DNA of 64,000 bases from Candidatus Magasanikiibacteriota bacterium (GCA_016193335.1 JACPSK010000001.1:175926-239925); one strand, 5' to 3'; positions 31,860-63,561 are shown, counted from the stretch's first letter. Program-made: numbers and translations. Notes: a model not told the origin generated them from the letters alone.

Positions 31860-32618
31860 TCATCTTTCATATTCTCCCCTCCCGAGTCTGAGCCGAATAT
31901 GAATTATATCCCAGATCATCATCAAGGTGTCTGCGACAAGGCGCACACTGCTTTCTTTATGATGAATCAATTCCACCGGAAAATCTAAAAATAAAAGGCT
32001 GTTTTTCCGAGCGATAACAAACATTTCTATATCAAAAGCAAAACGGTCCACGCGTGAACATTCAAGAAGCAAAACAGCAAATTCTTTCCTCATCATTTTT
32101 ATGCCGCATTGAGTATCCGGAATTCCTGAAAGCAGGACGGATTGCACGACATATTTAAAAAATGTTCTGCCCGCGTTTCTGATAAATCCATACTTTTTTC
32201 GTGATTGCGAAGCCGGATGACTCCGAGACCCATAGAGCAAGGACAAATCCGTTTGCGCCCGCATCTGACCAAGCATATGGCCAAACATCGCTATGCCATA
32301 AGGCAGATCCGCGTCAGTAAAAACAAGAAAAGCCCCGCGCGCCTTCCGGAATCCTTCTTTGAGCGCCCCGCCTTTCCCCTTGTTTTCGGGGAGATGCAAA
32401 ATCGTATAATCTCTTATGGATCCGGCATACGATCGGGCGATCTCGAGAGTCCTGTCTGAGCTTCCGTCATCAACCACTATAATTTCCACACCATATCCGC
32501 AGGAGACCGCATAATCCCGAAGCGTGCGCAAAGAAGATTCCAAAAAGGCCTCCGCGTTCAAGACCGGAATAATAATCGACACATCAATAGTCCTATTTAT
32601 TATCTGGGGTTCTTTCAT
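31860..32618 (-). CDS. GT2 glycosyltransferase
   Basis: VSIIIPVLNAE...VVDDGSSDRT...TDADL motifs. The internal start MKEPQ at 32618 removes the overlap with the upstream gene. Confidence 0.7.
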   Translation of the reverse strand: MKEPQIINRTIDVSIIIPVLNAEAFLESSLRTLRDYAVSCGYGVEIIVVDDGSSDRTLEIARSYAGSIRDYTILHLPENKGKGGALKEGFRKARGAFLVFTDADLPYGIAMFGHMLGQMRAQTDLSLLYGSRSHPASQSRKKYGFIRNAGRTFFKYVVQSVLLSGIPDTQCGIKMMRKEFAVLLLECSRVDRFAFDIEMFVIARKNSLLFLDFPVELIHHKESSVRLVADTLMMIWDIIHIRLRLGRGEYER

Positions 32619-34056: not shown

Positions 34057-34074
34057 ATTAGTGAATCTATCTTT

Positions 34075-46006: not shown

Positions 46007-47404
46007 TTACAGTCCGCTCAAAACAGCTCCTTCGCTATATGTTTCAGAGTCTTTCAAAGTAACTATCCGGTCCCAGCGATATTTCAATTTTTTGAATGTT
46101 TGTTCGTCCTTTATATGACGCTTTATCTGTTTGCTGGAATCAGCCGGATCCGGTTCAAGACGATAAACCTTGGAAGAACCTTTATATTTAACCAAAGTAT
46201 AATTCGGATGATGATCCGTATAACTTATCTCTGACCCGACTTTATATTTGTCGAGCAAGGCGCCATCTATGTCTTCAATCCAATCCCATTTATAACTGAG
46301 ATCATTAAATACTTTTTCAGAATTTATCCAATATTTATCAGGACCCAGAAGCAAGTATACTTTAGGATCTGTGACGATTTTTGCCAAGGCTCCGTATTTT
46401 GGATCGTAGAGAGGCCCCCATGGCATGAAACCCAGCGAATCATTAGTGATACTGTCCAATTTCGCTTTCGTGGTCGTCATGACACTGCTCCATCCGGTGA
46501 GATAGCTGAAAAATTTATCCGGACTGCTGAAAGGTCTTTTGGTACAGTTTTCAGTTACATAGTAAACAGCGGGTGACGCGGAATGTTTGTAAGCTTTTTT
46601 CAGAGCCAAAGCACACTCTTTCTTGCCGCCAGCTGCCAATTCTGAGAATTGCAGTTTTGGATTGCCTTTTTCATCCAAACCGTAATAGGTTACTCTCAAA
46701 TCCGCTTTGCCATTGCCATCACTGTCTATATCTTTCGAAGCACCTTTATCAAGGGTAACACTCACCGGTTTTGACTCTATCACCATGCTGATAGTGCTTT
46801 CCGTGGCGCTTGAAACAGTAACCGTGTGAGAGCTGGATCCTACACTTATTGATGTGGGAGAGCTGACACTTACTGAAACAGTAACCGGAATTCCTACGGG
46901 AGCTGGAGCTTCAGCGGCCGGGGCAGGAGCTTCAGCCTCAGCCTCAGGAGCCGGAGCCGGAGCCGGGCTAGCGCCCGGGCCTGATCCACCTCCGCCACCT
47001 CCGCCGCCCCCACTACTACCCGCGCCTGAGCTCGCCGTACAGGTGGTCTGAGGAGTTACCGTAATGGTCTGAGAATCAATATCATTGGTACAAAGAATCG
47101 TGAGCTTAGATGTTGAGGCGCAGGTTATCGTTTTTTCACCGCAGGTATTGCTCGATAAGCCAAATCCGTCTCCATTGGCTGAAGTGATCTCCACCACAGA
47201 GCCGGTAGCCACGGTAAACACTACATTATCTGTATTAACCGTGTAAGACTCCACGCGGGTGGCATTGGTAAGCGTATAGGTGTGTCCTGTGCCCGCGCTC
47301 AAACTTACGGTTGTAGTCCCATCATGCGTGACCGTGTTAAAGGCTCCAAGCGCCGCGGCGGGTACGAGGAGAAAAACCGCGATAATTGTGAATACTTTAT
47401 GCAT
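46007..47404 (-). CDS. Secreted protein with poly-Gly and Pro/Ala/Glu-rich linker, C-terminal domain of unknown function
   Basis: Signal peptide MHKVFTIIAVFLLVPAAALGA. Low-complexity segments GGGGGGGGGS and PAPAPAPEAEAEAPAPAAEAPAP. The C-terminal domain of about 270 aa has no motif I can name. Confidence 0.55.
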   Translation of the reverse strand: MHKVFTIIAVFLLVPAAALGAFNTVTHDGTTTVSLSAGTGHTYTLTNATRVESYTVNTDNVVFTVATGSVVEITSANGDGFGLSSNTCGEKTITCASTSKLTILCTNDIDSQTITVTPQTTCTASSGAGSSGGGGGGGGGSGPGASPAPAPAPEAEAEAPAPAAEAPAPVGIPVTVSVSVSSPTSISVGSSSHTVTVSSATESTISMVIESKPVSVTLDKGASKDIDSDGNGKADLRVTYYGLDEKGNPKLQFSELAAGGKKECALALKKAYKHSASPAVYYVTENCTKRPFSSPDKFFSYLTGWSSVMTTTKAKLDSITNDSLGFMPWGPLYDPKYGALAKIVTDPKVYLLLGPDKYWINSEKVFNDLSYKWDWIEDIDGALLDKYKVGSEISYTDHHPNYTLVKYKGSSKVYRLEPDPADSSKQIKRHIKDEQTFKKLKYRWDRIVTLKDSETYSEGAVLSGL

Positions 47405-47445
47405 AATGCTTTTTGTTTTGCTTGGGTTATACTTCAACTACCGGA

Positions 47446-49158
47446 CTAGAAATCACATGGATAGGTCCCGCTTGATACCGTCGAAGTGACAAACTCTCCA
47501 TTCACACCGAAAGAAAAATTTATACAGCCGCTTCCATCGCTTTTTTCCATTATGATGGCCGCTCCGAGCGAAGCTTTGCCCGAACCCATCACCAAATTGG
47601 AAACAGCCACAGAATTAACAAGAGTGGAAGTTGTCATATAGACTGTTCCTGAAGCGACGAGATCATTAAACGCCGCTCCGGCGCCGGCGCCGGAAACCAA
47701 GACACCGACATCATAGGTGTTATGTGTCCCCGGAGCTACTGAAGAAGCAACTCCTCCGTTAAAGGTAATAGTATCAGCGCCTGAATCTCCAAGAGTCACA
47801 TTGCCGTCTGCGCTCAGCACACCTGCCCAGAGAGTACCGGAAGAGAAAACATCATTCCAAGCGTTGCTGAACGCGCCGAGATCAAGATCATTGTTTGCAG
47901 TCGGTTCGAGTCTGCTTGCAAAACGAGAGTTGAGATAAATGGTATCAGACGTAGTGGCATTGCCCAGAGTTGTATTGCCGCCAAACCAGCCGGTGCCGTC
48001 TACCGCGAGGTTGTTGCCAACGCTCAAATCACCGGCACTGGTGCCAAGAGTGGCTACGTCTACGGTGCCGAGAACGATGGTGTTGGAAGCGAAAATGTCC
48101 CTCCAAGCTCCACCGTATTCTCCGGAGTCATACAAATTATTACCCACCGGTACCACAGTACCCGTAATGTCAGCGGCTCCAAACAAAGTCAAAGTACCGC
48201 TTGCAGAGCTATTCCCGATGGTGGTATTTCCGTAAAGCTGTGAAGTCCCATCAACAGCGAAATTATTACCCACACTCAAATCTCCGGCAGCGGTGCCAAG
48301 AGTAGCTAAGTTAACAGTGCCAAGCACGATAGTATTCGAAGCGAAAAGGTCATTCCAGGCGTTTGAATAGGCGCCAAGATCATTTCCATTGTTATCAGTG
48401 GGCTGAACTGACCCGGCCACACGAGCGTTGAGATACAATACATCTGTGGTAGTGGCGTCCCCAACAGTCAAGTTGTTTGAAATGGTAACGCTTGAACTCC
48501 ATACTGCCAAAGTGCCTACATACAAAGTCCCGGAAACATACAGATCTTTCCAAGCATTTGAGTAGGCGCCAAGATCATTTCCATTGTTATCAGTGGGCTG
48601 AACTGACCCGGCCACACGAGCGTTGAGATAAATGGTATCAGAAGTAGTGGCATTACCAAGAGTAGTGTTGCCGCCAAACCAGCCGGTGCCGTCTACCGCG
48701 AGGTTGTTGCCAACGCTCAAATCACCGGCACTGGTGCCAAGAGTGGCTACGTCTACGGTGCCGAGAACGATGGTGTTGGAAGCAAAGAGATCGTTCCATC
48801 CTGAACCATAAGCTCCGAGGTCATAGGTGTTGTGAGTGCTCGGCAAAACATTACTTGCCACGTCAGCGGTTATTGTAACCGTGTCGCTGGCAGAATCTCC
48901 GATGGTCGAGTTCCCGTTCAGGGTTGTAGCCCCAGTCACGGTTGTGGCTCCGGTAACGTCGAGCGTACCTCCAAAGGTTGCAGCCCCAGTGATGGTTGTA
49001 ACTCCGGTTACGTCGAGTGTGCCTCCAACAGAGACATTATTACCGACTGTAGTCGCGGCTTTGGAACTGCTTGGAGCGAACAGCAGAGCAACCGCTATAC
49101 CCAGTCCTGCGTAGAGAAGCAACATTCGTGCCTCTCTCCAACTTAGTGATTCAGACAT
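47446..49158 (-). CDS. Secreted beta-rich repeat protein with phage-tail-fibre-like repeats
   Basis: Signal peptide. Recurring DLGAYSNAW(N/K)DL(F/Y)AS.T..LGTV units resemble the LG....W..+Y phage tail-fibre repeat. The C-terminus has two cysteines (GSGCINF...YPCDF). Confidence 0.65.
   Translation of the reverse strand: MSESLSWREARMLLLYAGLGIAVALLFAPSSSKAATTVGNNVSVGGTLDVTGVTTITGAATFGGTLDVTGATTVTGATTLNGNSTIGDSASDTVTITADVASNVLPSTHNTYDLGAYGSGWNDLFASNTIVLGTVDVATLGTSAGDLSVGNNLAVDGTGWFGGNTTLGNATTSDTIYLNARVAGSVQPTDNNGNDLGAYSNAWKDLYVSGTLYVGTLAVWSSSVTISNNLTVGDATTTDVLYLNARVAGSVQPTDNNGNDLGAYSNAWNDLFASNTIVLGTVNLATLGTAAGDLSVGNNFAVDGTSQLYGNTTIGNSSASGTLTLFGAADITGTVVPVGNNLYDSGEYGGAWRDIFASNTIVLGTVDVATLGTSAGDLSVGNNLAVDGTGWFGGNTTLGNATTSDTIYLNSRFASRLEPTANNDLDLGAFSNAWNDVFSSGTLWAGVLSADGNVTLGDSGADTITFNGGVASSVAPGTHNTYDVGVLVSGAGAGAAFNDLVASGTVYMTTSTLVNSVAVSNLVMGSGKASLGAAIIMEKSDGSGCINFSFGVNGEFVTSTVSSGTYPCDF
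47961..48110. repeat. Intragenic direct repeat, copy A (about 150 bp)
   Basis: Near-identical to 48641..48790. It encodes IFASNTIVLGTVDVATLGTSAGDLSVGNNLAVDGTGWFGGNTTLGNATTSDTIYLN. Confidence 0.7.
48641..48790. repeat. Intragenic direct repeat, copy B (about 150 bp)
   Basis: Near-identical to 47961..48110. A second shorter pair lies at about 48378..48445 and 48572..48640. Confidence 0.7.
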
Positions 49159-49865: not shown

Positions 49866-51071
49866 ATGCATACAATCATTATGGAATTACGCCAAAAACA
49901 AACTATTTTGTACATCATCACTCAGGGGCATTGGGGAGGCGCTCAAACCTATCTCTATGAGCTCGCGACAGGCTTAAACCGGAGGTACAACATACATATA
50001 GCAGTGGGAGAATCTCTGGATACTCCTGATTTACAGAAAAAAATACAAACATTCAACCAAGGAGAATCCGCACAAAATCAAATCTCCTGTATAAGCCTCA
50101 AACATCTAGTCCGTCCCGTCTCCCCTGCCCAGGATATCTTGGCCATTTTTGAAATGGCAAAATGTATCAAAACCTGCGAACCGGATATAATACATCTCAA
50201 CAGCTCAAAAGCCGGCGTTCTTGGTTCAATATCCGCCCTATTTTACCGTAATCCTTCAAAACGCGTGATATACACGGTCCACGGCTGGGTATTCAACGAA
50301 GCTCTTGGAAAAACAAAAAAATACCTATATAAAATCTTGGAAAAACTAAGCGCGGCTTTCAAGACTCACATTATTCTACTGACAAAAAAAGACTTTTCCA
50401 TTGTCCTCAATCTCCTTGGTATCTCCAAAAATAAATTGCGTCTTATACCGCTTGGCGCCTCAGTCCAAAATCATATTTTAACTAAACAAGAGGCAAAAAC
50501 ACAGATAAACGCATACCTACCTTCAAACAAAAAAATTCTCCAAGATACATTCACCATAGGTATCATAGCCAATTTATACCACAACAAAGGTATCGACATA
50601 CATCTGCGAGCCCTCGGCCTTTTGTCCAAGACAGAGATTCAAAATACCAAAACCATAATCATAGGAGACGGGCCTGAGCGCGCAAGACTTCTAAAGCTTT
50701 CCGAAGATTTGCATATCAAAGACTTTGTCCATTTCCTCGGATTCATTGACAAAGCTTCCTGTCTTCTACCGGCCTTCGATCTCTGCATCATACCTTCAAG
50801 AAAAGAAGGCTCACCATATATCTTAAAGGAAGCCATAATCCAAAACATCCCTGTGTTAAGCTCAAAAGTCGGCGACGTAGAAGAATATATCATACATAAA
50901 AAAACCGGACTCCTCGCAGAACCCGGCAATACGGATGAATGGGCCGCTCATATTGTATGGTCTCTCCACAATAGACAACAACTGTCTTCTTTCTCCGCGT
51001 CAAACCAAAAAAACATCCCGAGCGTGGATGAAATGCTAAAAAAAACCATTGAGGTGTACGGCACTGTGTAA
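49866..51071 (+). CDS. GT4 glycosyltransferase
   Basis: CIIPSRKEGSPYILKEAIIQNIPVLSSKVGDVEEYI (E-x7-E). Confidence 0.7.
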   Translation: MHTIIMELRQKQTILYIITQGHWGGAQTYLYELATGLNRRYNIHIAVGESLDTPDLQKKIQTFNQGESAQNQISCISLKHLVRPVSPAQDILAIFEMAKCIKTCEPDIIHLNSSKAGVLGSISALFYRNPSKRVIYTVHGWVFNEALGKTKKYLYKILEKLSAAFKTHIILLTKKDFSIVLNLLGISKNKLRLIPLGASVQNHILTKQEAKTQINAYLPSNKKILQDTFTIGIIANLYHNKGIDIHLRALGLLSKTEIQNTKTIIIGDGPERARLLKLSEDLHIKDFVHFLGFIDKASCLLPAFDLCIIPSRKEGSPYILKEAIIQNIPVLSSKVGDVEEYIIHKKTGLLAEPGNTDEWAAHIVWSLHNRQQLSSFSASNQKNIPSVDEMLKKTIEVYGTV

Positions 51072-51139: not shown

Positions 51140-53161
51140 CTACTTATTTATCGTCGTAGAAACGACATCTCCGAGAAGCGCCAAACTCTGTTCATCAAAA
51201 TAAATCCCGGCCGCGTAGGCGCGGTTTACCAACTCAATCGCCTTCTCAGTCTGTCCCAAATGTTTATAGACCAAAGCCAACCTCCACCAACCCTCGCCTA
51301 TATCAGGCAAAAGATTTATACTCTCTTCCAAAAGTTTTACGACTTCTTCCCCTTTTCCCAACTGAAATTTAACACCGGCCAAACTGTAATACACTTGCTG
51401 ACGCTTGGGAGACTTGCGCAAGGCATCCTCCATAATCACTTCGGCTTTTACCACATATTCTGCGTTATGCGTGATTTCTGAGAGAACCTGGGCTATATGG
51501 GTCAGCTGAAGGTGTATCCTGATGTCATAGGGATGGATGTCCATGTTTTTCATCAAATCGTCGAAAGCTCGCTTTCCCATTTTAACCGCGAGTTCCGGAT
51601 TGCCGCCCTTGGCATACTGGCCCATGGTGTCCACCACGGTTCGCGCCAAGTCCAAACGAATATCATCCACATGAGGCGTGGGAATCCGGTACGCCTGTTC
51701 TATGGCTCCAAGCGGGTCGTTCCCTGCGTAGATACCGCGAATCGCGTCAAGAGAATGCATATTTGCCCGGGCAGGGCTGATATTAGTGGCATAGATGATA
51801 AGCGCCAGCACAATGGAAACAGGAGCCACCATGGAGAGAGACAGCTTGGCAGACTTAACATTCGCTATCCGCGCCAGAGCTTGAGGCCGTATATGCCAAT
51901 TTACAAAAGCCAAAAAGAAAAAGAAATAAATATATGAAGTGGGATTTTCAAACACAAACAACTGTTGAACAAAATGAGACACCAAAAAAGCCGACCCGAG
52001 AACACTCACATGCACGCCAACTTTCTTCTCACGATATCCTTTCCACAAATACCATATGGGAACCCCGAAAAGACCGAGATAACTCAAGAATCCAAACAAA
52101 CCCTGAACCGCAAGCGTGTTTAGAGCCGCGTTGTGCGCGTTGTCAAACCAGGTTTCTCCATAACCGGAACGCAAAAACTCGGGTCTGTAATATTTATTAA
52201 ACGCGTAATAATAATTGTTGGGTCCCCAACCGAATATGGGCTTTTCTTGCCAAGCCTCCACGGCTATATTCCAAGCCATCAAACGCGTGGCCCCCGTACC
52301 GCTGGTAAAAGATGAATTAACCAGTTTGCCCACAATGGGTGTTTTCATCACAAAAGGACTTTGTCTAAAAGTAAAAGCCAATACAAGGCACAAGAGACCG
52401 CCCACTATTACTATTCTCAAAATCTGGCGAACGCGCTTATGGCCCGAAAGAGTAATCGAATAACCAAGCAACAAAACCCCAAGCCCGGCCAAAAAACCCA
52501 AAAAAACGCCCCTGGTACCGCTAATAAATATACCCACCAAGCCAAGAAAGCTCACTATTCCAAAATAGCCTTTCCACAAAAATGTTTTCTCTTCAACAGC
52601 AAGAAAAAAACCCACAAAAGACAAAAACATCCCATAAGCTCCCAGATAGATGGCATTCCCCAAAGTGGCAGACACACGATCACTGCCTCTATTCAAAAGA
52701 AATTCAGGACTAAAAATTTGGATAATCCCCAAAACCATGATTAAAGCCCCTGTTGATAAAAGAATAAACAGCAAACGCCTCCATTGCTCCCGGGTTTTGA
52801 TGCAAGATGCCAAGACCACGTAATACATGCCATAATGGATAAGCGTAAAAAAACCAAGCATCCGTTCATGGTTGTCCCAAAAACTCTTGTACCAATCCAC
52901 GCCCAAAAAAGTGGACACCGCGAAACTCAAGAAATAAAGCAGAATCATGAGAGTAAGCGGCGTAGCTCGTACTTTATACGCCTCCCTGTCCATTTTAAAA
53001 AGCAAAATAAAAGTGCCGAGCATCAAAAGCGCAATGGTCCTGAAAAGAATAATTTTGGGTACGATAAAAGGAAAAATAAAAGCGCTGGGCACCACCACAA
53101 AAGGAACCAAAAACGTCAAGACAACAAGAGAAAAAAGTACTTGTTCAAGTCTCTTTTGCAT
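51140..53161 (-). CDS. O-antigen ligase/polymerase-like (Wzy_C) polytopic membrane protein with C-terminal TPR domain
   Basis: About 12 TM helices, including a loop segment IFISGTRGVFLGFLAGLG typical of the Wzy_C region. The C-terminal 250 aa are TPR-like (ALVYKHLGQTEKAIELVNRAYAAG). Confidence 0.55.
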   Translation of the reverse strand: MQKRLEQVLFSLVVLTFLVPFVVVPSAFIFPFIVPKIILFRTIALLMLGTFILLFKMDREAYKVRATPLTLMILLYFLSFAVSTFLGVDWYKSFWDNHERMLGFFTLIHYGMYYVVLASCIKTREQWRRLLFILLSTGALIMVLGIIQIFSPEFLLNRGSDRVSATLGNAIYLGAYGMFLSFVGFFLAVEEKTFLWKGYFGIVSFLGLVGIFISGTRGVFLGFLAGLGVLLLGYSITLSGHKRVRQILRIVIVGGLLCLVLAFTFRQSPFVMKTPIVGKLVNSSFTSGTGATRLMAWNIAVEAWQEKPIFGWGPNNYYYAFNKYYRPEFLRSGYGETWFDNAHNAALNTLAVQGLFGFLSYLGLFGVPIWYLWKGYREKKVGVHVSVLGSAFLVSHFVQQLFVFENPTSYIYFFFFLAFVNWHIRPQALARIANVKSAKLSLSMVAPVSIVLALIIYATNISPARANMHSLDAIRGIYAGNDPLGAIEQAYRIPTPHVDDIRLDLARTVVDTMGQYAKGGNPELAVKMGKRAFDDLMKNMDIHPYDIRIHLQLTHIAQVLSEITHNAEYVVKAEVIMEDALRKSPKRQQVYYSLAGVKFQLGKGEEVVKLLEESINLLPDIGEGWWRLALVYKHLGQTEKAIELVNRAYAAGIYFDEQSLALLGDVVSTTINK

Positions 53162-53176
53162 AAAATGCGTATGTGT

Positions 53177-53884
53177 TTATTTTAAAGCCGAACCCCAGGT
53201 CTCTTGATATAATTTCTCATCAGGATAAGCTTCAAGCAGTATCCGTACTGCCTCTTTGTATGATGTTTCATTGTTAGTATCCTGGTAGAAATTGATCAAA
53301 GCAATCAAAAGATCGGGATGTTTTGGGATTCGCTTCAATCCATTCGACAAAACCTCCTCCGCTTCGTTCGGATTATTGAGCTGTTTCTGGAGCATCCGCG
53401 CAAATGTTATATAGATGCCCACGTCCCCGGGCGATTCATCCAAAGCTCTCGGATAAAAGAGGGCCGCTTGTTCATAATCATTGAGCTCGATTCTATAGGT
53501 TTCGGCGATATTTCTTTGTCCCAATATATTGGGATGCACTTCATGCGACTTCTTGAAGCTCAAAATAGCCCGATGATAATCACCAAACATAGAGTACATA
53601 TTGCCAATTGCTATCCAGGTCTGCCAATCGCCCGGGCCGTCTTCTTCAAAAGCTTTTTTCGTCAAAGTTAGGGTTTCTTCCATGCGCGCTCGCGTCGCCT
53701 CATCCAAATTTTCTGGAATTACAACATGCCGAAATGGGTCTTCCACTGAAAAACTAATCTGAGTATCTTGATTCTGTCCGTCTTTTTTATCATCAGACCC
53801 TGTTCTGTACACAAACCAATACCAAGAGCTGAGAATTACCCCAATCAAAACGGCTCCTAACAATACATATGTTCTTTTTTTCAT
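53177..53884 (-). CDS. Membrane-anchored TPR-repeat protein
   Basis: An N-terminal TM helix, then TPR-like repeats (WIAIGNMYSMFGDYHRAILSFKKSHEVHP...). Confidence 0.6.
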   Translation of the reverse strand: MKKRTYVLLGAVLIGVILSSWYWFVYRTGSDDKKDGQNQDTQISFSVEDPFRHVVIPENLDEATRARMEETLTLTKKAFEEDGPGDWQTWIAIGNMYSMFGDYHRAILSFKKSHEVHPNILGQRNIAETYRIELNDYEQAALFYPRALDESPGDVGIYITFARMLQKQLNNPNEAEEVLSNGLKRIPKHPDLLIALINFYQDTNNETSYKEAVRILLEAYPDEKLYQETWGSALK

Positions 53885-54111
53885 ATTTTGATTTACATCC
53901 GCATCTCCGCAAAATCTCTATGACATGAGGCCTTCTTTCAAAAAAACCGCCGCAGGCTGAGAAAATTTCGGCTCATTCCGGATTAAATGGCAGCCAAACA
54001 TTTCACATCGTCCCGATCACGCGGGAACTAAAAATTATAAATTGTTGAGATTGTTAAGAAAGTATAACACAGATAACAAAAGCCCGGCAAGGCTTGAAAG
54101 TAGACTTAACG

Positions 54112-54135
54112 AAAAACCCCCGTAAGGGGGTTTTT
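54112..54135. terminator. Intrinsic terminator for the giant surface-protein gene
   Basis: AAAAA-CCCCC-GTAA-GGGGG-TTTTT, a perfect GC stem with a tetraloop and a flanking T-run, 29 bp downstream of the stop at 54164. Confidence 0.8.
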
Positions 54136-54163: not shown

Positions 54164-57100
54164 TTACTTCGCTACAACGGTAGGCGTGGTAGAGACGGAG
54201 TTCAATCCGCTTACCAAGAAACCGTTTACCCAGTCGTTCGTGGTGGTCGCGTGAGCGCCAGCACTGCGATCAGACCAGATGAAGTCATCATGGACATCGC
54301 TGTCGACTGTGTTGGCTGCTGACATGAGGTTAGCGTTCTCAACCCATGTGGCCGCGTCACCGCCGAGCCGTGTGCTAATGCTTGCTCCGGAAGCCACGCC
54401 AGTAACTGTGCCGCGGACCAAGTAGAGTCTTGGCTTGGAAACAGAAACTGTGCGTTCTTCTCCTCCATCGCCTGTGCCTGAACTGTCAGTATCAAACAAG
54501 GCCTGGAAGTAGCCGTTCACAAAAGCAGTAGTAGCTGAATTGTACAGTTGTACTTCCGTGCTTTCGGTAACATCGAGCACTTCAACGTTCGTGACTGTAG
54601 CCGTTGTCGTACTCATATCGAACACGAATTTGTACAATCCGATATCTCCCTTGTTGGCTGTGACCTTGAACTTGAACAGATCATTAGCGCCGTTTGCCAA
54701 GGTTCCGCCCACCGACAGAACTTCTACAGTCGGAGCAGCCTTGTACATGTAGTGCGTATTTCCTGTCGGAACATTGGAAGTGCTGAGGTACTCAATACTT
54801 CCAGTTCCGGTGAGGTTGCCTTTTGCCACCACATCTCCCGCGGCGTTGATCTTCAATCCAAGACGATGGCCACCTACTGTTACGGACTCTTGCGGACCAA
54901 TGCTGGCGAGGTTTGCCTTGAGATAAAGTTTCTTGCCATCAGAATCATCGGTCTTTACCACAAAGGATCCATCATTAAAGTCTATAACAGGGGTGGTGCT
55001 GGTCGGTACTACAGAACCTACCTTCACACCGTCTTCATCTTCAGCGTACAGAAGAGCATAATCCTTAAATGAAGAGCTGCTTGTGTCAGTCACGTTCATG
55101 GTGAACATGAGAGTGTCGAGCTCTACATTTTCTGTGGTGGTTGCGTAGAAGTTGAAGGTTCCCAAGGTCACACCGCTCGTTCCCGCGGTCATAAGAGCCG
55201 CTGTCGGGTTGGATGGGTCAAGTGAAACCTGTACGGTTCCGCCTGCCGCGCCTACGGTAATGGCTTGTCCATTTGCCGTGTCCTTAGTCTCGGTAACTGT
55301 GTTACCGGTCTTCACGCCCACAGATACCACGTCATCATTGCTGTTGTCATTGTCTACAGCAAATGTATGAGAGGAGGTGGATCCGGTCACTGCCCCACCG
55401 GCAATGTTTCCAACAACGCGTACTACCACCTTCTTGCCGGCCTTGACAACAAATTGGTCAGTGCCGCTCAAGTTGAAGGTAAAGGTTTGGTTGTTGCCTG
55501 CCGTGGAATCAGAACCGCTCTTTGTTTCGTTCAAAGCTTCTTCAGTACCGGCGCCATCATAGCTGTCGCCATCTTTATCCACCATCAATCTGATGTTCTG
55601 GACATCAATGGTTTTAGCAGCGGCATCGGTAGTATCCGTCATCTTGACCTGAGTAACTCTTATGTCCTCAGAAGAATTGCTGCCGTCAAACAAAAGTTGA
55701 GCGAACTCAACATTGTTGGTACCGGCTGCGAGTGTCTTGGCCGAAGGTACGGACAAGGTGGTCACGCGCAAAGAGCCTGCTTTGATAGTCTGAACGTTTG
55801 CGCTCACTGCGGCTTGCGGGTTTGCGTAAGTGCCAAGCGTAATCGTTTCAGAACTGTTTTCACCGGTAGCTTCGAAATTGGACGTATTGGCCATATCGAT
55901 AGCTACGGTTACTGTGTCATTTACTGCCGGCGTGCTGTCAAGAGTAGCCTTCAAAGTAAGGATATTGTCACCGACCGGTAAAGTAAATGAATCAGTTGAT
56001 GTCGCATAACCGGGGCTGGTGGATCCTACGCCGTCTTGTCCTCCGGTAAGAGAATCACCTTTTGCGCTGTACAAAACGAGCTGATCAAATCCGGTCGGAA
56101 GTACAGAGCCAGTGGTGGTCAATCTGAACACTACGGTTTTTACGGTTATAGGTTCTCCCTGAACTTTGAAGTTCCATGAACCCAATGCTACGCCGGTTGA
56201 ATCTTCCGGGATATTGCCGGCAATAACATCATTGGTCTTGGAAACGGTCAAGTTGCCCTGAGCGACAGTTACCGTGTTGCTCATCGCGCTCGCGTTATTG
56301 GTGGGAGTGGCATAGTAGCTATGCTTCAAATCCTTGGCCAATACATCGCTGGCTTGTTTTACATCCAAGTTCATGGTTCTCGCTGAGCCGCTCACAATGT
56401 CACCATATACTTCATAGGTCTTGTTCTTGCCTTTACCGATCTTACAGTCTTCGGTACAAGCATCAAGCTTGAAGGTAACATATTTGCCGCTCATTACACC
56501 GGTAGCAACTTTGTTGTCGTTGTAGCGGAGTTCAAGATCCGCGAAATCAGTGGTCGCGGCGCTTCCATCGTTGTAGAGAACGATTTTCTCAACCTGGAAA
56601 TCATTGGTCGCAACCGTGATCTTTACGTTGGCAAGGTTTATATCCTTGTCACCAACTTGCTCGGTGATGGTGCCTACCACAGCGCCTTCTGCCAAGGTTA
56701 CGGTGCCAAGAGTCACACCGGTGTTGGTTTGCACAGCATTTCCTTCCACAGGAAGAGTGCTGGCTACTTTGGCATCTGTCTCAACAGAATACAAAGCCAA
56801 GCGTGGTAAGTCTCCGCCGATAACGCCGGAACTCGCCATGTCAGCAACCAAAGTGTAGGTCTTGGTTTCGCCGCTCTTTACCATTACGTCTTCTGTAAAG
56901 GTGGCTAGGCTATCTGCATTCAATGTTTTACCAAGTGAATTCAACAGATTTCCATCCGGATCTACCACGTTTACTTTGCTCAAGTCTGCGTCTCGAGCCG
57001 GTGTACCGGTTCTCTTAACCACAAATGACTTGATAGTTACATCACCACCAGTCGCGCTAAGGTTGAGTTTGGTAAACTCAACGCGAGCCGCGCTTTGCAC

Positions 57101-57937
57101 TGCATAGGTGCCTGATGGCGTGCCAGCAGCCAAAGCCACACTCAAAGTCCCTTGGCTGGTCGTTGTGGTGTCAGTGGTTGTGGTGTCAGTGGTTGTGGTG
57201 TCAGTGCTGCTTGAACCAGTTCCCATCTGAGAAGGATCGGCACTAAGACTGCTTGGAGTTGCCGTGCCGCTTGCCACTTCCAAAGAATCAAATACTTCTT
57301 GGGAAACAGTGCGCACGTCACCCTTTGAGGTCATACCAAGAGTGCCGCTTACTTCTTTCAGTTCACCATTCCATACGTAGAAAACGCTGTCATCTCCGGA
57401 AGTCTTCACCAACATACCATTATGTGGTTTTGCTTCGGTTACAGCAGGGCCGTCTTTGTAGTTGGCGTCAAATACATCCGCAAGGTCTCTCACAAGAGAA
57501 GCCCACTTGTCGCCATACAGCGCTTTGGCCACAGCTTCGCTGGCCAATTTGTGCTTCATGTTGCTTGGACCCACGGCGTATACGTCTGGTGAAACTACGG
57601 TCTTGTACAATCGTGAACCAGGGCGGAAGTTTACACCACCACCACTTGGATAATTGCTTACGCATGTGTTTGGAATTTCTACCACACCGGAGAAATCTTC
57701 AAACCATGTTTTGTATACTTCTGAGTTCGGGAAATACATGCGCTCCATGTCAGCGTTGACATAGTATACCGCGCTGTTGTTCGGAACTTTGAACAAGTCC
57801 CCGGCTTCTAGCTCAGGACATGCTTCGGCCGCGTTGACCACGGCTGGAAGAAAAGCACCGAACGACATGCTGAAAACGGTCATACCAGAAACTACGCTGG
57901 TAAAGAGCTTTTTCCCGAATTTCTTCAAATCGCTCAT
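54164..57937 (-). CDS. Giant secreted cell-surface protein (S-layer or adhesin candidate) with Thr-rich linker
   Basis: Signal peptide MSDLKKFGKKLFTSVVSGMTVFSMSFGAFLPAVVNA. An N-terminal domain of about 200 aa, then a TDTTTTDTTTTDTTTTS linker, then about 1000 aa of beta-rich Thr/Ser/Gly/Val sequence. A strong terminator lies downstream. Confidence 0.7.
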   Translation of the reverse strand: MSDLKKFGKKLFTSVVSGMTVFSMSFGAFLPAVVNAAEACPELEAGDLFKVPNNSAVYYVNADMERMYFPNSEVYKTWFEDFSGVVEIPNTCVSNYPSGGGVNFRPGSRLYKTVVSPDVYAVGPSNMKHKLASEAVAKALYGDKWASLVRDLADVFDANYKDGPAVTEAKPHNGMLVKTSGDDSVFYVWNGELKEVSGTLGMTSKGDVRTVSQEVFDSLEVASGTATPSSLSADPSQMGTGSSSTDTTTTDTTTTDTTTTSQGTLSVALAAGTPSGTYAVQSAARVEFTKLNLSATGGDVTIKSFVVKRTGTPARDADLSKVNVVDPDGNLLNSLGKTLNADSLATFTEDVMVKSGETKTYTLVADMASSGVIGGDLPRLALYSVETDAKVASTLPVEGNAVQTNTGVTLGTVTLAEGAVVGTITEQVGDKDINLANVKITVATNDFQVEKIVLYNDGSAATTDFADLELRYNDNKVATGVMSGKYVTFKLDACTEDCKIGKGKNKTYEVYGDIVSGSARTMNLDVKQASDVLAKDLKHSYYATPTNNASAMSNTVTVAQGNLTVSKTNDVIAGNIPEDSTGVALGSWNFKVQGEPITVKTVVFRLTTTGSVLPTGFDQLVLYSAKGDSLTGGQDGVGSTSPGYATSTDSFTLPVGDNILTLKATLDSTPAVNDTVTVAIDMANTSNFEATGENSSETITLGTYANPQAAVSANVQTIKAGSLRVTTLSVPSAKTLAAGTNNVEFAQLLFDGSNSSEDIRVTQVKMTDTTDAAAKTIDVQNIRLMVDKDGDSYDGAGTEEALNETKSGSDSTAGNNQTFTFNLSGTDQFVVKAGKKVVVRVVGNIAGGAVTGSTSSHTFAVDNDNSNDDVVSVGVKTGNTVTETKDTANGQAITVGAAGGTVQVSLDPSNPTAALMTAGTSGVTLGTFNFYATTTENVELDTLMFTMNVTDTSSSSFKDYALLYAEDEDGVKVGSVVPTSTTPVIDFNDGSFVVKTDDSDGKKLYLKANLASIGPQESVTVGGHRLGLKINAAGDVVAKGNLTGTGSIEYLSTSNVPTGNTHYMYKAAPTVEVLSVGGTLANGANDLFKFKVTANKGDIGLYKFVFDMSTTTATVTNVEVLDVTESTEVQLYNSATTAFVNGYFQALFDTDSSGTGDGGEERTVSVSKPRLYLVRGTVTGVASGASISTRLGGDAATWVENANLMSAANTVDSDVHDDFIWSDRSAGAHATTTNDWVNGFLVSGLNSVSTTPTVVAK

Positions 57938-58067
57938 AATTAGTAATCCTCTACTCATCTTCAAGCGTCCCAATGTTTATTTTTTCACCGGGATCAAAAA
58001 GATAAGTACTTGACTTAAAGTCATCCAACGGTCCATAGACCCCGACCTTTCAGTCGAATGACACTTC

Positions 58068-58104
58068 CTTGCGCGAACGCAAGTCCTTCGGCTTTGGCCG
58101 AAGG
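58068..58104 (-). promoter_or_regulatory. Tandem GC-rich tetraloop hairpins in the leader region of the giant surface-protein gene
   Basis: CTTGCG-CGAA-CGCAAG and CCTTCGGC-TTTG-GCCGAAGG on the plus strand. On the minus-strand transcript these give UUCG and CAAA loops. No U-run follows. Confidence 0.35.
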
Positions 58105-58239
58105 GCCGCAATATACTGTATGGCATAGAGATCCCTCAATATTAAGGTGAAGGAGCCCAAGCCGCACAGTAGTATACCGCGACTGCATACTTTATAATAC
58201 TTGTAAAAGAACCCTTCTCTAGTTTTCTATCCTTAATTT

Positions 58240-59580
58240 TTAATTCGAGTTTGTTCCCGTGGCTGATTTTGGAGCTACCTGTAATGCCGGATCTGTCTTT
58301 TGCGTGCCTGCTCCCAAGCCTCCCGCAGGAGGGGACACTGCCACAGCCTGAGCTTCAATCAAAATATGTTCAGCTACGTTTGTAATTTCACCGAGACCCT
58401 TTATGGTGTCAAAAGCCTCTTGCAATTTACCTTCTTCTATCAAAATCCTTACTTTTTGGGCTGAATTATCTACTTCTTTTGTTTTTTCTTTAAGTTGTTC
58501 TTTTGCCTGGCTAACCGAAGGCGTCTCTAGCACCTGGGCAGCCTGGGCCATCACATTGGCACTGGAAGAAACGATTCTCGGCGTGTCAGCGCTCCAAGAA
58601 GCTGTGGAACTGCTAAGCTGTACGGAAACAGTGGAAGAAGACAAAGACAGAGTACTGCTGACTGCGCCATTCATCAAAATAGCTGAACCGGAAACCGTTT
58701 GATTCGAAGCGTTTGAGTCGGCTCCTTTCTTTACTTTTTCATTATCTTGTAAAATATTGTCTAATGCTCCGTTCACCAAACTTTTTACTTCGTCTTTCAA
58801 ACCACCATTTTCAGCGATCCCGCTTCTCACGATTGTTTCAATCGAATCCAAGGCCTTACCATCCACACTTTGGGCCACTTCAGAGACTTGCCTTACCACT
58901 TCCGTATTTTGGGTCGTCTGAGAGTTGGCGCTAATGTCTTTCAATTCTTTGGTGATCACTTCTGTTTCTTTTTGAGTGTCTTTCGCAAGAGCCAGAGCTT
59001 TGCCAGGGTCTTCATTTATTTTTTGTTTAACCTCTTCATTGCTTATGGTCACTGCGGTTGATATAGACTCCTGAAGATGCTTGTTCGCGGCATCCACCCG
59101 ACGCGAAGTATCTTTACGATCCTCTTCAACCAATTGTTTGATCTCTTCCACCCTTCTCTCTGCAAATTCAAAATTTCTTTTAATTTTAATCTCTTGTTTT
59201 GATTCTTTTGGCGCTCCAACAGCTGCAAAAGCTATCTGAGTTTTCTCATGAGCCACTTTAACACTCCAGCACATATCTCCGGGTATACAATTGAAAGTGG
59301 CGCTTACACTGGCAGACCAGCCGGCGAGGGCCATGAGCATGATAAGAAAAGTAGTGAGCACCGGACGACCAAACGACACCAAGCCCTGCGGTACAAACGT
59401 ATGAATAAATATATCGAAAGACCAACTTTTTTCTCCAAACGAGACAGGCCATTGCTTCACTGCCTGAGCACGTATCTGGTCCATCATTATCTCTTTATTT
59501 TTTGAAACCCAAGAAGGATCTGGGTTAAGCAGATCTTTCATCGTATCAAAATGCTTCAATTGTCTTCGAAAATTCTTCAT
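58240..59580 (-). CDS. Candidate anti-sigma factor: a single-pass membrane protein with a long coiled-coil and Ser/Thr-rich ectodomain
   Basis: It starts 17 nt after the sigma-factor stop. A cytoplasmic N-domain of about 85 aa, one TM helix (VLTTFLIMLMALAGWSASV) and a charged, repetitive extracytoplasmic domain. Confidence 0.5.
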   Translation of the reverse strand: MKNFRRQLKHFDTMKDLLNPDPSWVSKNKEIMMDQIRAQAVKQWPVSFGEKSWSFDIFIHTFVPQGLVSFGRPVLTTFLIMLMALAGWSASVSATFNCIPGDMCWSVKVAHEKTQIAFAAVGAPKESKQEIKIKRNFEFAERRVEEIKQLVEEDRKDTSRRVDAANKHLQESISTAVTISNEEVKQKINEDPGKALALAKDTQKETEVITKELKDISANSQTTQNTEVVRQVSEVAQSVDGKALDSIETIVRSGIAENGGLKDEVKSLVNGALDNILQDNEKVKKGADSNASNQTVSGSAILMNGAVSSTLSLSSSTVSVQLSSSTASWSADTPRIVSSSANVMAQAAQVLETPSVSQAKEQLKEKTKEVDNSAQKVRILIEEGKLQEAFDTIKGLGEITNVAEHILIEAQAVAVSPPAGGLGAGTQKTDPALQVAPKSATGTNSN

Positions 59581-59596
59581 ACACGCATTGTCCAAG

Positions 59597-60157
59597 TTAT
59601 TGCTCTTTCTGAAGAATATTTTTGAGCACTTGCAAAGCTCTATGCAGAGTAACCCTCACATTTGTCCTGCTTTTTCCAAGTATGACGGCTATTTCAGAAC
59701 CACTCAAAGAGTCCATATATCGGAGAATTATTATCTCCTGATATTCACGCTTCATCTTTTTCAAGGCTTTCAGTATTTTTTCAGCCTCATAACGATCGTG
59801 AATCATTTCGTATTCTTTCGCGTCTGTTCCCTGTTCTTTCAAATCTTCGAGAGAACAAAGTTGTTCTCTTCCCTTTTTTCTATAAAAATCCACCAAAGTA
59901 GTTTTGGCTACTTTATATATAAAGCCGCTGAAACTTCTTACATCACTGTACTTTCCTTCGGCAAGATAATTCCAAGCTTTCAAAAAAATGTCACTGGTCA
60001 AGTCCTCTGCCTCGGAACGACTTGAAACCTTAAAAGAAATAAATCTATATATCCTCTCTATATACAGACTATAAAGCTCCCCGTAAGCCTCAGGATCACG
60101 GTCTTTCTTTATTTTGTAAAGAAGCTTTTTTTCTCTCAAGCTGTCTTTTACGTTCAT
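59597..60157 (-). CDS. ECF-type sigma-70 family RNA polymerase sigma factor
   Basis: Region 2 DLTSDIFLKAWNYL and region 4 HTH LSGSEIAVILGKSRTNVRVTLHRALQVLK. Length 186 aa. Confidence 0.8.
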   Translation of the reverse strand: MNVKDSLREKKLLYKIKKDRDPEAYGELYSLYIERIYRFISFKVSSRSEAEDLTSDIFLKAWNYLAEGKYSDVRSFSGFIYKVAKTTLVDFYRKKGREQLCSLEDLKEQGTDAKEYEMIHDRYEAEKILKALKKMKREYQEIIILRYMDSLSGSEIAVILGKSRTNVRVTLHRALQVLKNILQKEQ

Positions 60158-61692: not shown

Positions 61693-63561
61693 ATGGATTT
61701 TGTCACAAAACACCTCACGCGCCATCACTTCTTCCGCGCGCCGCATCGCTGGTTTTTTAGTTTGCTTTTGTCCCCCATTCACTTTGCCGAAATACATTAC
61801 CAAAAACGTTATCACCTCAAATACGCTCACGCAAAAAAATTATTCTTCTTTGATAGTGCGCTCCTCGGTACTGTGATCGTCCTTATAACATCAACTCTAT
61901 TTTGGCTGAGCTATGACCCAAGTGTAACGGCCCTCGTATACCTCAATATTTCTCAACAATTGAATGAGGAAGCGCAAAAAAATCCGGAACGAATCTCGAG
62001 CGGTTCATACACCACATATATCGTCTCATACGCGAATAAAAGCGATACAGAGCTGAGAAGTCCCGCCGTCAGCTTACAATTACCCGCAGGATTCATTCTG
62101 GATTCAGCCAAACCTTCTGAAAACTTTTCATCGTCTACCTTTACGTTTAACTTGCCCAGCTTAAAGCCCGGAGCCGAAGGAATTCTCTTCTTCAGTGGAT
62201 GGTTCTATGGCGCAGTGGACAAAGAAACAACGCTCAGCGCTCGCATTTCCTACACGCAAGCCGACAAAGAAGAGCTGGAGACAAAAGCAGTCCACATTCT
62301 CACTACTCTTAGAGGTTCAAGCATGGAGGCAACTATCAACGCGCCAAACTATATAGTATCCCAAGGCTCGCATAAACTCACTTTGAGCCTGCAAAACCGC
62401 GGAACTCATAACATTGAACTCACACGGGTACCGCTTATACTTCCAAGTGGACTTGAAATACGAAACACGACCAACACCATAGGGAACGTGGAAGATACAA
62501 TCTGGACTGTTAAAAATATGGATGCAAATCAGCAAGCCGATCTGGACCTGGATATTTCTTCAAACATAGCTCAGAACCTAAACGAACAAGAGCTTTCATT
62601 CACCCCGGAAATAATTATAGATAGTCATATATTTCCACAGACAAAAATTTCACATGTTTATACTACGGTTCATCCAAATCTTGAAACATCCGCTATCTGG
62701 AGCAAGGCAAACCTAAAGCCCGGAGAAACAGACTCATTAAAAATAAAATTAAAAAACAGCGGCGACACGGCCCTCAAAAATCTCACTTTCTCGGTTCTTT
62801 TATCTCCTGAACTTGTTGACTTAAGCATGCTTGCCAAAATTAATCATGGATTCTTGGAAAAATCTACATTCAACATAGATTCCGGATACAACGCGGGATT
62901 CAGTTCTCTCGAAGTTCAAGAAGAAATAGCAATAAACCTGGATATTCCTATACGCAAAACCCCTAAAGGCGGGACTGACCTCACCATGCGGCTTAAGCCT
63001 GTTTTGAACGCGGATATCAGCGCGAATGGATCTTCATATCGCTTTGAACGTTCATTCGAAACCCCATCAGCGCATATTGGAACCCTGCTTTCATTGGACG
63101 CGGAATCACGTTATTTTACCAATGAAGGAGACCAGCTGGGGCGCGGCCCCTTGCCGCCTCGAGTAGGAGAGCAAACCAAATATTGGGTCTTGATAAACAT
63201 TTCCAATACAAGCAGTCGGGTGCGAGATCTTTCGTTTTCAGCAAAGATTCCGGAATACATACAATGGACCGGCAGATCCAGTGTGAGCAAAGGAAACAAT
63301 CTGACATTCAACGATCAAAACCGTCTGGTGTCTTGGTCCGCCGCGTCTCTTGAACCGTATGAGACAGTAGGACTCTACATAGAGCTTGGTCTCACGCCCA
63401 CCCCAAGCCAAAAAGGAAGCTTTCCTATTCTGCTCAGCGATATCGAACTGAACGGAACAGACAACTACATATCTTCACCATTACAAAACTTTATTTCTTC
63501 TGTGGATTCTTCACTCAAGAACGATAAAAAAGCTCAAGGAAAAGGAGTCGCTGTGCGCTAA
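61693..63561 (+). CDS. Membrane-anchored extracytoplasmic protein with repeated beta-sandwich-like segments (surface protein, function unknown)
   Basis: One TM helix (LLGTVIVLITSTLFWL), then about 540 aa with recurrent ...L.L.L.N.G...+.L... segments suggesting Ig-like or CARDB/DUF11-type repeats. The start codon is uncertain. Confidence 0.45.
   Translation: MDFVTKHLTRHHFFRAPHRWFFSLLLSPIHFAEIHYQKRYHLKYAHAKKLFFFDSALLGTVIVLITSTLFWLSYDPSVTALVYLNISQQLNEEAQKNPERISSGSYTTYIVSYANKSDTELRSPAVSLQLPAGFILDSAKPSENFSSSTFTFNLPSLKPGAEGILFFSGWFYGAVDKETTLSARISYTQADKEELETKAVHILTTLRGSSMEATINAPNYIVSQGSHKLTLSLQNRGTHNIELTRVPLILPSGLEIRNTTNTIGNVEDTIWTVKNMDANQQADLDLDISSNIAQNLNEQELSFTPEIIIDSHIFPQTKISHVYTTVHPNLETSAIWSKANLKPGETDSLKIKLKNSGDTALKNLTFSVLLSPELVDLSMLAKINHGFLEKSTFNIDSGYNAGFSSLEVQEEIAINLDIPIRKTPKGGTDLTMRLKPVLNADISANGSSYRFERSFETPSAHIGTLLSLDAESRYFTNEGDQLGRGPLPPRVGEQTKYWVLINISNTSSRVRDLSFSAKIPEYIQWTGRSSVSKGNNLTFNDQNRLVSWSAASLEPYETVGLYIELGLTPTPSQKGSFPILLSDIELNGTDNYISSPLQNFISSVDSSLKNDKKAQGKGVAVR

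Follow-up and report, generated by a model that had tools for sequence, protein, structure and literature searches.

Ultra-small bacteria of the candidate phyla radiation (CPR) account for a large share of bacterial diversity, and surface layers (S-layers) have been reported on them. The molecular identity of the CPR coat, which forms the interface with hosts and phages, has so far rested on recent in silico predictions for a few lineages. In a genome scan for S-layer candidates, Johnston, Isbilir, Alva, Bharat and Doye (2024) predicted hexagonal (p6) lattices for Patescibacteria proteins of 1131–1274 amino acids (aa) from Nealsonbacteria, Doudnabacteria, Kaiserbacteria, Kazan and Parcubacteria; examples are Kaiserbacteria A0A0G1WWP5 (1173 aa), Nealsonbacteria A0A1G2EN61 (1131 aa) and Parcubacteria GMX59286.1 (1185 aa), and two of the candidates are proteins of Kuroda et al. 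(10.1101/2024.05.28.596244). In methanogen-parasitising Paceibacteria, Kuroda et al. (2024) found secreted proteins of unknown function with peptidoglycan-binding and Ig-like domains among the most highly expressed genes (PMC10936435). Here we analyse a surface-protein gene on the minus strand of a 64,000-nucleotide stretch (the window) from Candidatus Magasanikiibacteriota bacterium (GCA_016193335.1, JACPSK010000001.1:175926–239925), a CPR/Patescibacteria bacterium. With moderate confidence, we propose that this gene encodes the principal S-layer protein of the Candidatus Magasanikbacteria cell, tuned by a sigma factor and glycosylated by a neighbouring slg-like gene cluster.

The gene neighbourhood calls to mind systems described in Firmicutes. 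In Geobacillus, the S-layer gene sgsE adjoins wsaA, which encodes a small tetratricopeptide repeat (TPR) protein, and wsaB, which encodes a Wzy_C-type O-oligosaccharyl:protein transferase (O-OTase); in two further O-OTases, WsfB and PglL, the Wzy_C protein ends in a TPR domain (PMC2943079). Lactobacillus S-layer genes combine a stabilising, structured 5′ untranslated region (UTR) with biased codon usage (PMC3666127). At the Magasanikbacteria locus, the conserved order is a sigma factor of the extracytoplasmic function (ECF) type, a putative anti-sigma factor, the surface gene, a TPR protein of about 230 aa, a Wzy_C protein with TPR of about 680 aa and, on the opposite strand, a family 4 glycosyltransferase (GT4). 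This order recurs in nearly all loci with enough flanking sequence (about 30 related loci), and also in a distant relative, P0184, that has a different N-terminal domain.

Extended to a TTG, the open reading frame of the surface gene spans 54164–57973 on the minus strand and encodes 1269 aa, the length given in an earlier annotation that a model had made from the DNA alone (the sequence-only reading). An in-frame ATG (MSDLKKFG...) lies at 57937, with the Shine–Dalgarno sequence AGAGGA 9 nt 5′ of it, and the 1257-aa product of this start is identical to the NCBI entry 'hypothetical protein HYY51_01135' from a Candidatus Magasanikbacteria metagenome-assembled genome (MAG). The ATG is the likely start and 1257 aa the better call; the gene is real at the coordinates that had been given for it (Table 1), but the greater length belongs to the TTG-extended frame. 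The protein is acidic (141 Asp and Glu against 90 Lys and Arg), contains four cysteines and is rich in Thr (12.7%), Val (11.4%), Ala (9.3%), Ser (9.2%) and Gly (9.2%). Pfam and NCBIfam scans of it gave zero matches, and PDB sequence searches with the single protein or with a family profile returned chance-level matches only.

A first homologue search yielded 217 proteins at E ≤ 1e-3; among the 120 listed, most were 1200–1290 aa long with 29–62% identity, and every named one belonged to Magasanikbacteria. Among GTDB species representatives we found 36 loci, in effect a single one for each genome; one of these genomes is a complete 1.23-Mb chromosome. Many MAG records with the Magasanikbacteria-type cassette (L005, L007, L008, L010, L011, L013 and others) are titled 'uncultured Gammaproteobacteria bacterium' or 'Candidatus Saccharibacteria', which are probably placeholder or wrong taxonomic labels. 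A HMMER scan of 1.84 billion representative proteins, with a single 1200-aa sequence as query, recovered 4022 clusters at E ≤ 1e-3, of which 522 reached E ≤ 1e-30. In many clusters the match is confined to query positions ~180–1200, so that a β-rich array and a C-terminal module are common to them and the N terminus differs. The three relatives sampled were one from the Parcubacteria group; P0254 (1138 aa), which carries an N-terminal PG_binding_1 domain; and P0184, which keeps the sigma, anti-sigma, TPR and Wzy_C context. P0254 matched the surface protein at E 3e-58 (phmmer) and belongs to a very large family of 1110–1220-aa 'peptidoglycan-binding proteins' of Paceibacterota, Minisyncoccia and Kaiserbacteria. 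In a BLASTP comparison with the Kaiserbacteria protein P0373, residues 269–1254 aligned colinearly with residues 172–1153 at 27% identity (E 2e-44), the C-terminal motif (IWS...W..Y.V.GL) included. The picture is one of an ancient module of about 990 aa common to CPR classes, with the N-terminal domain swapped: the N-domain described below is kept in Magasanikbacteria homologues, and PG_binding_1 stands in its place in Paceibacteria relatives.

On lineage, length, architecture and annotation, the proteins of Johnston et al. very probably correspond to this PG_binding_1 family, and they in turn appear to be the highly expressed peptidoglycan-binding and Ig-like proteins of Kuroda et al. Their candidate list contains no Magasanikbacteria protein, and our literature search found no paper naming Magasanikbacteria together with an S-layer. 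The S-layer function proposed in the sequence-only reading gains indirect support, from homology to predicted Patescibacteria S-layer proteins, from constant length and apparent single copy, and from the signatures of high expression described below.

Structure prediction with AlphaFold2 (AF2) resolved the protein into discrete parts (Table 1). A clear signal peptide had been claimed, and its Sec-type features are present: a KKFGKK n-region, a hydrophobic core and a cleavage site between VNA and AEA; residues 1–37 are unstructured in the model. The globular N-domain that had been proposed, with structure prediction as the suggested check, is a confident α/β fold of ~195 aa (residues ~40–235), with a predicted local distance difference test (pLDDT) score of 96–98. 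It consists of three similar short repeats of the type xVYxV... (AVYYVNADMERMYF..., DVYAVGPSNMKHKL... and SVFYVWNGELKEV...). Foldseek matched it only to the periplasmic repeat domains of EccB1 and EccB5 (E 1.5e-4, probability 0.99, with a low TM-score of ~0.2). The authors of the EccB1 structure noted that these repeats weakly resemble the wall-binding protein PlyCB and speculated about peptidoglycan binding (PMC4769845). A Pfam scan found no SLH, CWB2 or PG_binding domain in the surface protein.

The linker that follows contains TDTTTTDTTTTDTTTTS (residues 245–261), which is disordered in the AF2 model and encoded by a perfect tandem repeat of 15 nt × 3.0 (57162–57206, minus strand). Because the repeat is perfect at the DNA level, the Thr/Asp linker appears to be a recent slippage product. 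Homologues carry GTGTGT, TPTPTP, EDEDED or poly-T in its place; among the linkers of 102 homologues, Ser and Thr make up half or more of the residues in 16, while 3 linkers are acidic, 5 consist largely of Gly and the others are mixtures of Ser, Thr, Pro and Gly. Length and composition vary in nearly every homologue, so the segment looks like a slippage-prone, fast-evolving spacer. The perfect Thr-Asp repeat described in the sequence-only reading is therefore present, but as a recent DNA tandem repeat and not as a conserved motif.

The ~990 aa after the linker are all-β (mean pLDDT 90.1), in keeping with the β-strand-like, Thr/Ser/Gly/Val-rich tail of about 1000 aa that had been noted from composition. 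They divide into five homologous β-sandwich modules and a distinct C-terminal module, whose invariant motif also occurs in the Kaiserbacteria relative. Self-BLASTP detected no internal repeats; the five-module repeat is visible by profile–profile comparison only, with most module pairs reaching 86–96% probability in hhalign (E 1e-6 to 3e-9). Module 2 carries a CxxxC pair, C494/C498 (~56444–56458, minus strand), which is invariant in an 18-sequence alignment of closer homologues but missing from some of the more distant family members. The N-domain residue C92 hardly varies; C494/C498 and C40/C92 may form extracytoplasmic disulfides or a metal site. With its signal peptide, domain structure and homology, the product fits the description of a secreted, multi-domain, β-rich surface protein.

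Foldseek comparison of the β-array with the PDB returned generic Ig-like arrays (PrgB, integrin legs, cadherins, antigen I/II and MSCRAMMs) at TM-scores of 0.1–0.15 and 7–13% identity. Since the top matches are Ig-like adhesin stalks (PrgB, antigen I/II and the SdrC/FnBPA/UafA class), the protein could instead be a non-lattice adhesin or fibril with which an episymbiotic cell attaches to its host, rather than a covering S-layer. CPR bacteria are typically episymbionts, which suits such a role, and Kuroda et al. read related, highly expressed proteins as possible host-attachment factors (PMC10936435). However, length is nearly invariant (~1200–1290 aa over 29–62% identity), and the modules are anciently diverged and not recently amplified, unlike those of repeat adhesins. 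The gene is also single-copy within a fixed cassette in every genome examined, shows strong expression-type codon bias in 29 of 30 related loci and encodes a C terminus (...LNSVSTTPTVVAK) with no LPXTG or other sortase signal and no transmembrane segment. An adhesin had been offered as an alternative in the sequence-only reading; both an LPXTG anchor and a variable repeat number are absent, and we regard an adhesin function as unlikely.

Table 1 Features of the Magasanikbacteria surface-protein locus. Positions count from the first letter of the window.
Feature	Position	Strand	Basis or remark
Two PMT_2-like GT-C genes (32593–34056 and 34075–35415)	32593–35415	-	~20 kb from surface gene
GT4 glycosyltransferase at cassette edge	49866–51071	+	Domain scan, conserved position
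Polytopic Wzy_C (O-antigen-ligase-like) protein with C-terminal TPR; candidate O-oligosaccharyl:protein transferase	51140–53161	-	Domain scan, synteny
Membrane-anchored TPR protein, 235 aa, WsaA-like position	53177–53884	-	Domain scan, synteny
Two tandem intrinsic-terminator-like hairpins (54134–54111 and 54095–54075)	54075–54134	-	11-bp stem; second hairpin with U-run
Surface-protein coding sequence	54164–57937	-	1257 aa; stop codon included
Distinct C-terminal module, residues 1061–1257, invariant motif DDFIWSD...W.NGYLV	54167–54757	-	Homologue alignment, hhalign
Five homologous β-sandwich modules, residues 263–407, 408–552, 553–712, 713–890 and 891–1060	54758–57151	-	AF2, hhalign
Disordered low-complexity linker, residues ~236–262	57152–57232	-	AF2 disorder; tandem-repeat analysis
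N-terminal α/β domain, residues 38–235, candidate cell-wall anchor	57233–57826	-	AF2, Foldseek
Sec-type signal peptide, residues 1–37, predicted cleavage between VNA and AEA	57827–57937	-	Sequence reading; low pLDDT
Conserved structured 5′ leader, ~235 nt	57938–58173	-	Folds, alignment, covariance model
Ribosome-binding site AGAGGA	57952–57947	-	
Leader domain B	58008–57952	-	
Leader domain A: stem P1, asymmetric loop AAAGGTCG, hairpin P2	58062–58020	-	
Leader long-range stem: ACTGTGCGGC with GCCATACAGT	58170–58161 with 58124–58115	-	
Putative anti-sigma factor: single transmembrane helix, weak DUF5667 match	58240–59595	-	Domain scan; conserved position
ECF-type sigma-70 factor	59597–60157	-	Domain scan; conserved position
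ECF-type promoter GTAACAC-N15-CGTC, ends 8 nt before sigma start codon	60165–60189	-	Motif search

Codon usage sets the surface gene apart from its surroundings. Its GC content at third codon positions is the highest in the window (0.519 versus 0.444 ± 0.031), and its effective number of codons is the third lowest among 47 genes. In two-fold codons, NNC is used over NNT (gene versus window: AAC 0.66 versus 0.36, TTC 0.58 versus 0.24, TAC 0.60 versus 0.31), as is ATC (0.50 versus 0.26); AAG is preferred over AAA (0.60 versus 0.26 in the window), and GGG, TCG, ATA and CCC are avoided. Relative to neighbouring genes, the same shifts recur in related loci, where base composition varies: towards NNC in 29 of 30, towards AAG in 28 of 30 and away from GGG in all 30. 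This is a pattern typical of highly expressed genes. A very strong terminator had been noted at the end of the gene, and the sequence indeed folds there into an 11-bp stem (AAAAACCCCCU/GGGGGUUUUU) with five G–C pairs and a U-run, about 30 nt past the stop codon, followed by a second hairpin with its own U-run. Together with the conserved, structured 5′ leader, the codon bias and tandem terminators point to high predicted expression.

The 300-nt gap upstream of the surface gene contains the same leader blocks in at least 20 Magasanikbacteria loci, and the leader occupies the same position in L001, L002 and L005–L031. Its 5′ part consists of the block tAtACTGTrYGGC, a variable covarying hairpin and then GCCATACAGTAt, with the outer blocks pairing over a long range in a stem of 10 bp. 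Between this stem and domain A lies at least one variable hairpin. In domain A, a 9-bp P1 encloses the loop cAAAGGTCGa, with GGTCG invariant, and a hairpin P2 placed right against the 3′ strand of P1. Domain B follows the pattern CTTATCt-nnnn-GAy-hairpin-rCGC-nnnn-aGATAAG and ends 15–25 nt before the ATG. The ACTGT...ACAGT blocks were considered as a LexA-type operator and rejected, as the half-sites are ~45 nt apart with a covarying hairpin between them.

When 12 leaders were folded independently as single sequences, 11 adopted the same architecture, with a z-score below -2 in 10 of 12 and of -5.4 in the window. A covariance model of domain A found this element at the same position in 19–20 loci; the match in the window (58021–58061) is weak because its P2 differs. 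In the domain A alignment, which is fitted to the covariance model itself, 94.9% of cells hold standard pairs, compared with 65.7% in shuffles and 34–44% in slid controls, and every one of the 15 pairs has compensatory changes affecting both of its sides; covariation scored 0.77 versus 0.25, a value that 0 of 500 shuffles reached. The seed of the model included two sequences with one loop base removed for register, and counts were taken from real sequences only. RNAalifold on MAFFT alignments recovered one stem only, with the hairpins misaligned, and a MAFFT alignment of domain A alone was likewise out of register. A search of Rfam matched no leader family at the gathering threshold and gave chance-level matches only at E ≤ 10. 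The invariant GGTCG loop, the covarying stems and the phylum-wide conservation suggest that the leader would have a specific ligand or protein partner, rather than serving for generic stabilisation. A more speculative and rather doubtful extension is that the leader, with its invariant asymmetric loop AAAGGUCG, ACUGU...ACAGU stem and CUUAUC...GAUAAG domain, is a new class of cis-regulatory RNA that couples coat synthesis to the state of the envelope, through either unassembled coat protein (autoregulation) or a factor under ECF sigma/anti-sigma control; with the TPR and Wzy_C enzymes, it would then form a self-contained 'coat cassette' that only Magasanikbacteria-like CPR bacteria have.

Both the ECF sigma gene and the anti-sigma gene that had been claimed directly upstream are there, on the same strand, the anti-sigma assignment being putative. 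The window has a single copy of the ECF motif GTAACAyTTTT-N-CGTCT, as do most related loci; L001 and L031 have two matches. It always lies near the sigma or anti-sigma gene, and before the anti-sigma gene instead in L033, L035 and L042. As the promoter in the window ends ~8 nt before the start codon, hardly any leader would be left on the sigma mRNA. On the other side of the sigma gene, in divergent orientation upstream (61693–63561, plus strand), lies a gene for a 622-aa DUF11/CARDB-like, membrane-anchored protein, which is kept in most related loci (L005–L031) at 30–41% identity and may be a further envelope component of the cassette.

This arrangement raises the question of whether the surface gene belongs to an envelope-stress-induced ECF regulon and is made under particular conditions, rather than as a constitutive coat. 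In essentially all loci the sigma/anti-sigma pair immediately precedes the gene in the same orientation; its autoregulatory ECF promoter is conserved, and the stretch from the anti-sigma gene to the leader showed no terminator. By contrast, no ECF-type promoter precedes the gene or the leader, codon bias implies sustained high expression, and Paceibacteria relatives lack the sigma pair at the locus; we consider stress-limited expression improbable. Direct ECF control of the surface gene was rejected, there being no ECF promoter motif upstream of it.

The glycosylation island reported to adjoin the surface gene is confirmed to the extent that glycosylation genes flank it downstream: over more than 40 kb, the island comprises many GT4 and family 2 glycosyltransferase (GT2) genes together with epimerase/dehydratase and UDP-sugar dehydrogenase genes. 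The sequence-only reading had pointed to PMT-like GT-C enzymes, which it described as typically targeting Ser/Thr-rich linkers. PMT_2 genes are present in the window but lie ~20 kb away, and the adjacent pair of TPR and Wzy_C+TPR genes is a better candidate. The Wzy_C gene lies immediately downstream of the TPR gene and encodes at least 9 transmembrane segments (Wzy_C match E 7e-21), and the pair is kept in ~25 of 30 related loci. This gene order mirrors sgsE–wsaA–wsaB, which makes the adjacent Wzy_C protein a better candidate glycosylating enzyme than the PMT-like proteins. In one distant genome only (L003), a PMT/TPR/PMT arrangement fills the TPR/Wzy_C slot. In about nine loci (L010, L013, L021, L022, L023, L028, L029, L030 and L033), ~2.2 kb separate the TPR and Wzy_C genes, and this space is taken by a further Wzy_C paralogue right after the TPR gene, as checked for L021 and L023. 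Whichever genes occupy the slot, their products are enzymes acting on lipid-linked sugars.

As CPR cells are believed to lack an outer membrane, a WaaL-type ligation to lipid A was judged unlikely, which leaves a role as polymerase or as protein O-OTase for the Wzy_C protein. If it is a polymerase, the surface protein could still be an S-layer or major surface protein, and the TPR, Wzy_C and glycosyltransferase genes would make a wall or capsular polysaccharide, possibly the ligand of the N-domain, as in the PSII/CWB2 system of C. difficile or the secondary cell wall polysaccharide (SCWP)/SLH system of B. anthracis. The genes of S-layer proteins and of the polymers that anchor them are often linked, Wzy_C is also the polymerase or ligase domain of polysaccharide pathways, and several genomes have two Wzy_C paralogues side by side; an island of more than 40 kb with many GT4 and GT2 genes and the non-conserved linker suit this alternative too. 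Against it, the order of S-layer protein, small TPR protein and Wzy_C protein matches that of the experimentally studied sgsE–wsaA–wsaB genes, the combination of Wzy_C with a C-terminal TPR matches the protein O-OTases WsfB and PglL, and the slot in L003 is filled by PMT-family enzymes, a Pfam family named for protein O-mannosyltransferases. Polysaccharide synthesis is the most serious of the three alternatives considered, possible if still clearly the less favoured account of these genes. Glycosylation of the surface protein is plausible on the evidence of this neighbourhood. The Thr/Asp linker is a plausible glycan acceptor, and the modules, with 12.7% Thr, offer many sites; as homologues carry very different linkers, the linker cannot be a conserved glycosylation target.

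The island encodes two more secreted or anchored proteins without Pfam matches (46007–49158 and 43931–45080, both on the minus strand; 570 aa with GGTLDVTG-type repeats, and 476 aa), and two small open reading frames have a ...NIYASSTAFLDYVSST... segment in common. The 570-aa and 476-aa proteins and the small frames with NIYASSTAFLDYVSST may be additional surface proteins or paralogue fragments.

Several observations weigh against a sigma-tuned, glycosylated S-layer protein. In the Foldseek comparison the β-array matched adhesins and other generic arrays of Ig-like type (PrgB, integrins, AgI/II) best, rather than S-layer proteins of solved structure; the fold match of the N-domain to EccB is weak (TM-score ~0.2), and a wall-binding role of EccB is itself only hinted at. 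The link to the proteins of Johnston et al. draws on shared lineage, similar length and architecture, and homology to one family, not on matched accessions, and the reference for codon usage was the neighbouring genes and not ribosomal-protein genes. In neither the window nor the related loci does an ECF-type promoter stand before the leader or the surface gene. As for glycosylation, Wzy_C domains occur in polymerases too, and with two paralogues in some genomes the acceptor could be a polysaccharide; the linker lacks conservation, and in some homologues it is acidic and contains neither Ser nor Thr.

In the model that we nevertheless favour, in which the gene encodes the glycosylated S-layer protein, Sec would export the coat protein with removal of its signal peptide, and the three-repeat α/β domain would hold the protein on the cell wall. 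The Thr/Asp linker would join this anchor to the five β modules and the C-terminal module, which may build the outer layer or lattice, as suggested by homology to proteins predicted to form p6 lattices. The surface gene would constitute its own highly expressed transcription unit, in which the ~235-nt leader most likely stabilises or regulates the mRNA, and which the two tandem terminators would end. The ECF sigma/anti-sigma pair, with its own ECF promoter, probably tunes the cassette to the state of the envelope by read-through or indirectly. The TPR protein, the Wzy_C+TPR protein and the glycosyltransferase and sugar-nucleotide genes would form an slg-like cluster that assembles a lipid-linked glycan; judging from synteny and architecture, this glycan may be transferred outside the membrane onto Ser and Thr residues of the surface protein, possibly including the linker. 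Such a compact, conserved cassette provides handles on how uncultivated CPR cells build, regulate and glycosylate their surface.

Among described glycosylated S-layers, the locus most resembles the SgsE/slg cluster of Geobacillus stearothermophilus NRS 2004/3a, in which a monocistronic S-layer gene adjoins a glycan-assembly cluster with a small TPR gene and then a Wzy_C gene. As in slg-type clusters, glycosyltransferase and sugar-nucleotide genes follow; the likeness of the Wzy_C protein to an O-OTase is at the domain level. SpaA/WsfB of Paenibacillus alvei and PglL compare through their architecture of Wzy_C with a C-terminal TPR, and the Magasanikbacteria locus has both TPR forms, one at the C terminus of the Wzy_C protein, in the style of WsfB and PglL, and one as a separate 235-aa protein, in the style of WsaA. 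Unlike in the Geobacillus and Paenibacillus systems, the structural protein is unrelated in sequence and has no SLH anchor, and we identified no exporter, whether Wzm/Wzt or another; conversely, the Firmicutes systems as described have neither the ECF sigma pair nor the conserved leader RNA of the Magasanikbacteria locus. The expression signals are like those of Lactobacillus slpA-type genes, with a long 5′ leader predicted to be stable, biased codons and a strong terminator. However, the leader has no homology to the Lactobacillus UTRs and is kept in sequence and structure across a whole candidate phylum. Gram-positive Ig-like adhesins (PrgB, antigen I/II and MSCRAMMs), the best Foldseek matches, also consist of tandem β-sandwich modules, but the surface protein differs from them in having no LPXTG motif and no recent repeats, in its constant length and in its gene context.

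The Patescibacteria candidates of Johnston et al. and Kuroda et al. have in common with it a length of ~1130–1270 aa, a signal peptide and an N-terminal anchor domain followed by a long β-array. In the Magasanikbacteria protein, by contrast, the N-domain is a three-repeat α/β domain resembling the EccB repeats, not PG_binding_1, and the sigma/anti-sigma and TPR/Wzy_C cassette at its locus has no counterpart at the one Paceibacteria locus that we examined. We would class the protein as a new, anchor-swapped member of the Patescibacteria candidate S-layer family, not as a new kind of system; what we contribute to that family is its Magasanikbacteria branch, an anatomy of five modules, a conserved cassette of regulator, coat and candidate oligosaccharyltransferase genes and a conserved, structured leader RNA absent from Rfam.

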